64,000 nt of DNA from Escherichia coli (lineage in GTDB: Bacteria; Pseudomonadota; Gammaproteobacteria; Enterobacterales; Enterobacteriaceae). Of this stretch, positions 15,334-15,393 are shown piece after piece. The position numbers were made by a program, and so were the translations under genes. The stretch is from the NCBI RefSeq assembly GCF_003334405.1, contig NZ_QOWM01000001.1; one strand, given 5' to 3'. The first letter of the stretch is position 1. Every line of letters begins with the position of its first letter. The notes below the pieces were generated by a model. It worked only from the letters and a program-made list of their open reading frames with translations. It did no database searches and was not told the origin of the DNA.

Positions 15334-15341
15334 GACTGATT

Positions 15342-15364
15342 GGGCGCAGTCTATTACTGCGCCC
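15342..15364 (+). terminator. intercistronic hairpin between mglB and mglA (possible partial terminator or mRNA stabiliser)
   Basis: gggcgcagt-ctatt-actgcgccc stem-loop followed by ttattg. Confidence 0.5.
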
Positions 15365-15393
15365 TTATTGTATGGCCAACAAGGTAAAATTAT

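Follow-up and report, generated by a model that had tools for sequence, protein, structure and literature searches.

The 60-nt gap that separates mglB from mglA in Escherichia coli encodes a compact RNA hairpin that is probably a 3′ protective stem-loop of the malE–malF type, one that would stabilise a decay intermediate carrying mglB only. It has every feature of such stem-loops testable here: it is stable and lies directly 3′ of the stabilised cistron; published Term-seq data place an in vivo 3′ end a few nucleotides 3′ of the stem in both MG1655 and BW25113; and, according to published ratios, the upstream segment of the operon outlives the downstream one by enough to account for the difference in abundance between them. 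We infer that the hairpin is the cause, because correlation and analogy are the basis of the assignment. The element itself is already known, being catalogued in published genome-wide tables. Our analysis leaves current views unchanged and opens no long-standing question; what it offers is confirmation, together with two comparative points that are new – covariation of the stem across genera, and the non-conservation of the U-tract that follows it.

The gap and its hairpin

The window – the whole 64,000-nt stretch of DNA that was analysed, and to which all positions refer – is 100% identical to E. coli K-12 MG1655 over the 4.2-kb stretch galS–mglBAC. Gene coordinates were taken from the list of open reading frames and from the RefSeq annotation of the identical MG1655 locus: galS occupies 13009–14055, mglB (the periplasmic galactose/glucose-binding protein) 14335–15333 (+), mglA 15394–16914 (+) and mglC 16930–17940 (+), with preA on the opposite strand. 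In the published stability data (Dar & Sorek 2018, PMC5927463, S3 Table) mglB is the stabilised upstream segment of the operon, while mglA and mglC make up the less stable downstream segment. A search of 5,426 complete E. coli genomes with the 4.2-kb stretch around the mglB–mglA gap gave some match in all 5,426, with at least 80% of the stretch covered in 5,381.

A few genomes carry rearrangements at the locus. In AB1157 (E. coli K-12, locus L082) the match to the gap ends 3 nt past the hairpin, at about window position 15367, and the truncated gap is followed by IS5; mglA through part of sanA is absent, mglB and the hairpin are kept, and this deletion with its IS5 is probably the classical mgl-51 allele. 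The matched stretch contains IS4-like elements (IS421 / ISVsa5 family) in NZ_CP013952 (HST04), NZ_CP195093 (TUM1509), NZ_CP062908 and NZ_CP062863, in each of which mglA is present as two ATP-binding-cassette fragments, an arrangement that points to insertions into mglA in two K-12 laboratory derivatives and in two isolates from pigs.

The gap (15334–15393, +), which is exactly the interval singled out in an earlier note on this DNA, reads GACUGAUU-GGGCGCAGU-CUAUU-ACUGCGCCC-UUAUUGUAUGGCCAACAAGGUAAAAUUAU and is followed immediately by the AUG of mglA. The GC-rich, 9-bp hairpin that the earlier note had described right after mglB is indeed present: it spans 15342–15364 (+) and comprises a 5′ arm, GGGCGCAGU (15342–15350), a 5-nt loop, CUAUU (15351–15355), and a 3′ arm, ACUGCGCCC (15356–15364). 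The stem begins 8 nt past the mglB TAA and consists of nine perfect Watson–Crick pairs, seven of them G–C. The computed fold of the hairpin alone has an energy of −16.5 kcal/mol; the hairpin is present in both the minimum-free-energy (MFE) and the centroid folds of 76-, 130- and 241-nt contexts, and the 76-nt segment gives z = −2.89 against dinucleotide shuffles. Perfect hairpins with at least 9 bp and at least 7 G–C pairs number three in the 64-kb window, compared with a mean of 0.2 over 30 shuffles. It is on the strength of these folds, this rarity, the covariation described below and an entry in the S6 Table of Dar & Sorek that we propose the hairpin to be a barrier to 3′ exonucleases.

The GC-rich stem, with a loop that falls in the range of 3–8 nt, is also what is expected of an intrinsic terminator; indeed, the hairpin is the highest-ranking terminator-like match of an 8-kb scan. 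The stem is followed by the A/U-rich sequence UUAUUGUAU (15365–15373, +), and the description of this segment as a T-rich stretch stands as far as composition is concerned, but not if a canonical U-tract, some 7–9 nt long and with U in the proximal positions, is meant: in TTATTGTAT T accounts for 5 of the first 8 and 6 of 9 positions, no run is longer than two, and the tract is interrupted at position 3.

The translation start region of mglA (15381–15396, +) closes the gap. Here the Shine–Dalgarno sequence AAGG (15381–15384) is separated by a 9-nt spacer from the AUG (15394–15396); as read from the sequence this AAGG is weak, and mglB has GGAG. The start is conserved as GGCCAACAAGGTAWAATT-ATG in Escherichia and Citrobacter, and takes the form CAGCCAGGTATAACT-ATG in other genera. 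A second pairing is available at the upstream end of the gap, where AGACUG (15333–15338) and CAGUCU (15347–15352) form a 6-bp alternative that shares nucleotides with the 5′ arm of the main hairpin and that appears as a minus-strand terminator-like match. It is weaker than the main hairpin, is lost even among E. coli strains (L003 variant) and is probably the product of chance.

Repetitive extragenic elements are found in the same operon, at its far end. A permissive Rfam scan of 13000–19000 placed no family in the mglB–mglA gap and reported only REP/naRNA4 after mglC, where REP-type elements at 18003–18080 and 18119–18182 match naRNA4 (RF02564) with 88 and 38 bits. We considered whether the mglB hairpin is itself a REP/BIME and rejected the idea: the gap contains no match to RF02564, and the 60-nt gap is present once per genome, and the core pattern GGGCGY...RCGCCC occurs only twice in the 64-kb window. 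The second occurrence (35004–35022) is a hairpin of 6 pairs with a 7-nt loop and a poor U-tract (UUUGCCUG), which sits 11 nt past the stop of a 789-aa open reading frame (32623–34992) and is followed, from about 35068, by REP-like sequence.

Conservation of the stem and of the tail

Comparisons were based on a scan with MglB, restricted to one genome per species, from which the best 80 of 595 loci were taken; all are from Enterobacteriaceae, and their MglB proteins share 92–100% identity. Among these best 80 loci, 70 species carry a GGGCG(Y)...(R)CGCCC hairpin 6–24 nt past the mglB stop. These 70 hairpins have 7–12 pairs, loops of 3–8 nt and a median ΔG of −14.75 kcal/mol, and the length of the spacer between stop and stem is highly variable among them.

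The pattern of substitution within the stem is telling. In an alignment of 56 distinct orthologous sequences drawn from the same best 80 of 595 loci, 95% of the cells form standard pairs, compared with 34–62% when the 3′ partners are slid out of register. Changes on both sides of a pair are seen at 5 of the 9 pairs, in 54 cells; they include G–C to A–U at the eighth pair and C–G to U–A at the sixth. The observed covariation score was reached by none of 500 shuffles. The five outer pairs (GGGCG/CGCCC) are almost invariant. Variation within E. coli is of the same kind: the two main haplotypes of the gap – the K-12 version, found as an exact match in 1,515 genomes, and a variant with the loop CGUUU, exact in 2,633 – differ in the loop only, and a rare lineage carries a compensated stem in which AGU/ACU has become AAU/AUU. 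Such comparisons indicate that selection acts on the RNA stem, on its structure rather than on its sequence.

The tail behaves differently. Across the 70 hairpin-bearing species (again from the best 80 of 595 loci) the first 8 nt after the stem contain between 2 and 6 U, the leading U-run is at most 4, and 14 of the 70 tails begin with a nucleotide other than U. UUUU directly 3′ of the stem is seen in several genera, and the tail in Enterobacter is UUUUAUAAC. The stem is nonetheless kept above U-poor tails in Salmonella arizonae (UGAAACUG), Klebsiella ((G)AUUAUUCC), Buttiauxella ((G)AUUCAGAU) and Kluyvera (AAUACUGA), as well as in Cedecea. Conservation thus extends to the stem but not to a U-tract in the tail, and the part that is required is the stem alone and not the stem plus a U-tract. 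A stem maintained through compensatory changes above a tract that is not maintained fits an exonuclease barrier better than it fits a terminator, and speaks for protection, not termination, as the function under selection.

Several loci of the comparative set depart from the simple hairpin. In three species (loci L022, L044 and L081) it is replaced after mglB by an imperfect palindrome of about 125 nt, which we take to resemble an ERIC repeat. In Raoultella and one ‘Enterobacter’, 70–170 nt are inserted between the conserved arms ACGGGCG...CGCCCG, while Pluralibacter and one Citrobacter carry another hairpin instead (UCCCGUGCUGG...), followed by an A-rich tail; L057, L066 and L071 are loci with these arm insertions or the replacement hairpin.

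Transcript ends, decay and termination

Term-seq in two strains, carried out by two laboratories, places a strong RNA 3′ end 5 nt beyond the stem, at 15369 (+). The primary mglB 3′ end recorded in MG1655, at 2239314(−) (Adams et al. 2021, PMC7815308, Supplementary file 1), is supported by 147,960 reads in LB at OD 0.4 and by 77,439 reads in LB at OD 2.0; mglB is entered twice in that file, and we assigned the entries to the two LB tabs by their position in it. The end was mapped to window position 15369 by locating four flanking sequences, and the placement was checked against the offsets ‘internal +462’ and ‘−150’ that the file gives. The RNA thus ends ...ACUGCGCCCUUAUU-3′. In BW25113 grown in LB the mglB end falls at the same nucleotide (Dar & Sorek 2018, PMC5927463). 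The mglB end appears to be absent from the glucose-minimal tab of the former study, a condition in which the operon is catabolite-repressed. Reads at 15369 exceed those at any other minus-strand 3′ end that the Adams table lists inside the window; at 18153 (a REP hairpin) and 18323, both operon-distal, the counts are 51,513 and 23,751. The supplements to SMRT-Cappable-seq contain no mgl entry.

We considered whether the distance between stem and 3′ end tells termination from processing, and dropped it as a discriminator: among about 18 Term-seq ends of the same table, those of both kinds lie 3–8 nt past the stem, and the +5 offset of the mglB end fits terminator-type and hairpin-only ends alike.

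A further strong 3′ end, classed as ‘orphan’, lies in the galS–mglB intergenic region at 14185 (MG1655 2240498−), 150 nt upstream of the mglB ATG. It has 92,182 reads in LB at OD 0.4, a Rho score of 0.44 (‘No’) and an intrinsic terminator score of 1.47, and a promoter-like site (14126–14153) precedes it by only about 30 nt; an obvious hairpin was not found before it. Candidate origins are the mglB leader, of which this would be a very short 5′ piece, and the end of a galS transcript.

The stability of the messages has been measured as well. In rifampicin time courses the ratio of mglB to mglA half-lives is 2.65 ± 0.37, and the ratio of their steady-state mRNA levels is 3.04 ± 0.57 (Dar & Sorek 2018, PMC5927463, S3 Table). 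The excess of binding-protein message over transporter message that the earlier note had anticipated is therefore borne out, at 3.04-fold; and the outcome which that note had named as telling against its proposal – uniform abundance across mglB and mglA, with no 3′ ends at the hairpin – is the opposite of what is seen, namely this excess together with a strong 3′ end. The same authors include the mglB|mglA hairpin among their ‘3′ protective structures’ (S6 Table), with the same fold at −17.7 kcal/mol and a sequence that ends ...GCGCCCUUAUU. Entry to this list was filtered: gene pairs with an intrinsic-terminator signature at the Term-seq site were removed, as were those with internal start sites or with substantial bicyclomycin-sensitive (Rho) termination.

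The two ratios can be combined. If, at steady state, the level of a message is the product of its synthesis and its mean lifetime, then dividing the ratio of abundances by that of lifetimes gives 1/(1−T), where T is the fraction of polymerases terminating at the hairpin. From the published values we calculate 3.04/2.65 = 1.15 ± 0.27, and thus T of about 13%, with a range from below 0 to about 29% at one standard deviation and up to about 40% at two, it being understood that half-lives fitted to rifampicin data on a mixed population of RNA only approximate lifetimes. By the same calculation the difference in half-life accounts for about 87% of the difference in abundance. Because the half-life ratio covers nearly all of the abundance ratio there is little room for termination: differential decay suffices for the data, and termination is not required and is at most a minor contributor. 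The earlier suggestion of ‘partial termination or an mRNA-stabilising element’ is thereby narrowed, the second half finding support in the half-life ratio and in the list of protective structures, the first surviving only as a minor contribution.

The sequence of events that we envisage is as follows. The mglBAC operon is transcribed as one unit, and the weak Shine–Dalgarno sequence of mglA would bring fewer ribosomes to that gene. By analogy with malE–malF and with the model of Dar & Sorek (PMC5927463), an endonuclease, probably RNase E, would cut within the poorly translated mglA–mglC part, and the 3′-to-5′ exonucleases PNPase and RNase II would digest back from the cut until they stall a few nucleotides downstream of the hairpin. 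The product itself is documented: an mglB-only mRNA ending at 15369, which lives about 2.7 times as long as the mglA segment and accumulates about three-fold; still translated, and with the stronger ribosome-binding site of mglB, it would give more binding protein than membrane and ATPase subunits. Weak intrinsic termination at this site may contribute a little as well. Were this correct, one promoter and one small hairpin would suffice to turn uniform transcription of an ABC-transporter operon into mRNA levels that are unequal by about three-fold, and thereby into more substrate-binding protein than membrane and ATPase subunits.

Of the alternatives, the one that survives best holds that the hairpin is a leaky intrinsic terminator – that substantial transcript release takes place at the stem and its UUAUU, the hairpin then protecting the terminated RNA. 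We consider this unlikely. The element certainly looks the part, its GC-rich stem of 9 bp, loop of 5 nt and 5 U in 8 making it the best match in 8 kb, but its U-tract is interrupted at position 3 and is missing from many of the species in which the hairpin is retained, even if UUUU follows the stem at once in several genera. The 3′ end mapped in vivo falls within the tail, yet the site was not flagged by the intrinsic-terminator filter of Dar & Sorek (PMC5927463). The ratio of steady-state levels is slightly above that of half-lives, and termination of about 30–40% falls within the wide error bars of our argument; against this, some 87% of the difference in abundance comes from half-life, which leaves termination at roughly 0–30%, and transporter function needs mglA and mglC from the same promoter. 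Weak termination could be supported by the E. coli tail UUAUUGUAU, with 6 U in 9, and by UUUUAUAAC in Enterobacter, and we regard the hairpin as at best a marginal intrinsic terminator.

A variant of the preferred reading, to which we attach a low probability, would have the hairpin act both as a stabiliser and as a conditional weak terminator gated by translation. With the 5′ arm only 8 nt past the mglB stop (6–24 nt elsewhere), a ribosome terminating at that codon would mask the stem. Tight coupling of translation to transcription would then allow much read-through into mglA and mglC, and uncoupling would reduce it. If true, the ratio of mglB to mglAC transcription would not be fixed but would vary with physiological state.

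That Rho terminates transcription within a weakly translated mglA, the ends being trimmed back afterwards to the hairpin by exonucleases, is in our view very improbable. One paper refers to Peters 2009 for Rho-dependent terminators inside mglA and mglC and reports that rho mutations sweep together with mutations upstream of mglB under glucose limitation, and Rho-terminated RNA is known to have its 3′ ends trimmed back as far as a hairpin upstream (Adams 2021, PMC7815308). The table of Rho regions in this last study, however, has no entry in mglB, mglA or mglC: the only region in the transcription unit is downstream of mglC, at about 18655, with a score of 7.46, and the internal 3′ ends at 15856 (mglA) and 17423 (mglC) score 0.91 and 0.41, both ‘No’. 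Gene pairs with substantial bicyclomycin-sensitive termination were, moreover, excluded by Dar & Sorek (PMC5927463). Rho termination inside mglA is thus unsupported by the Adams tables. The end at 17423 has an identity of its own, being the 3′ end of ‘mglC int’, an ORF-internal small RNA candidate that is detected by Northern analysis in LB, forms RIL-seq chimeras with ArcZ and has a reported internal promoter (Adams 2021, PMC7815308).

Least probable of all is that the main role of the hairpin is something other than the stability of mglB, even if the near-invariance of the outer GGGCG/CGCCC pairs is in keeping with such a role: tuning of mglA translation would rely on a second 6-bp helix over the mglA AUG in the MFE fold (UGGCCA, 15373–15378, with UGGUCA, 15395–15400) that is weak; a 3′-derived small RNA would have no Rfam match in the gap and a 3′ tail, UUAUU, that is a poor Hfq-type U-tail; and a protein-bound DNA palindrome is at odds with a loop of 3–8 nt and a covarying inner stem, which fit RNA pairing and not a fixed spacing. 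We rejected the DNA operator on these grounds of arm spacing and covariation, and the Hfq-binding 3′-UTR small RNA on finding a UUAUU end with no long U-tail. In the searchable literature we found no mglB 3′ small RNA and no link of ProQ or Hfq to the mglB 3′ end; there mglB figures as a target of small RNAs via its 5′ UTR only (Spot 42, UhpU), not as a source.

Likeness to known systems

Intrinsic terminators share with the mglB hairpin a GC-rich stem, a short loop, an A/U-rich 3′ flank and a 3′ end within that flank, and there is precedent for one that is leaky and lies inside an operon: T1, between rpsU and dnaG, is cited as setting operon stoichiometry by partial termination. The mglB hairpin differs from canonical terminators in having no uninterrupted U-tract (UUAUUGUAU) and a tail that is not U-rich across genera; nor is it classed as a terminator by Dar & Sorek (PMC5927463), and the data leave little termination for it to perform.

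The REP/BIME elements after mglC resemble the hairpin in that transcripts end there, the 3′ end at 18153 lying just past the stem of the second REP. They are multicopy (the 4.2-kb query that contains them matches at a median of 36 places per genome), whereas the mglB hairpin is single. The more distal end, at 18323, is associated with a hairpin and UUUUCUC inside the antisense of preA, and is followed by the Rho region at about 18655.

The closest likeness is to the protective structures that shape other binding-protein operons. The list of Dar & Sorek (PMC5927463), in which the mglB hairpin is itself an entry, includes hisJ–hisQ and artI–artQ; most of its structures lie inside the downstream open reading frame, and that of mglB is intergenic. 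The best comparison is with malE–malF in malEFG, where the stem-loops are REP sequences. Like mglBAC this operon encodes an ABC transporter with the gene for the binding protein placed first, and in both a stable stem-loop stands just 3′ of that gene, with a 3′ end a few nucleotides past the stem. The ratios, too, are close: 3.21 for half-life and 3.26 for abundance at malE/malF, and 2.65 and 3.04 at mglB/mglA (Dar & Sorek, PMC5927463). Two differences are to be set beside these parallels. The malE–malF structure is built from REP/BIME repeats, whereas that of mglB is a simple hairpin present in a single copy; and the malE–malF stabiliser has mutational proof, where the role we propose for the mglB hairpin draws on correlation and on analogy with that very system.
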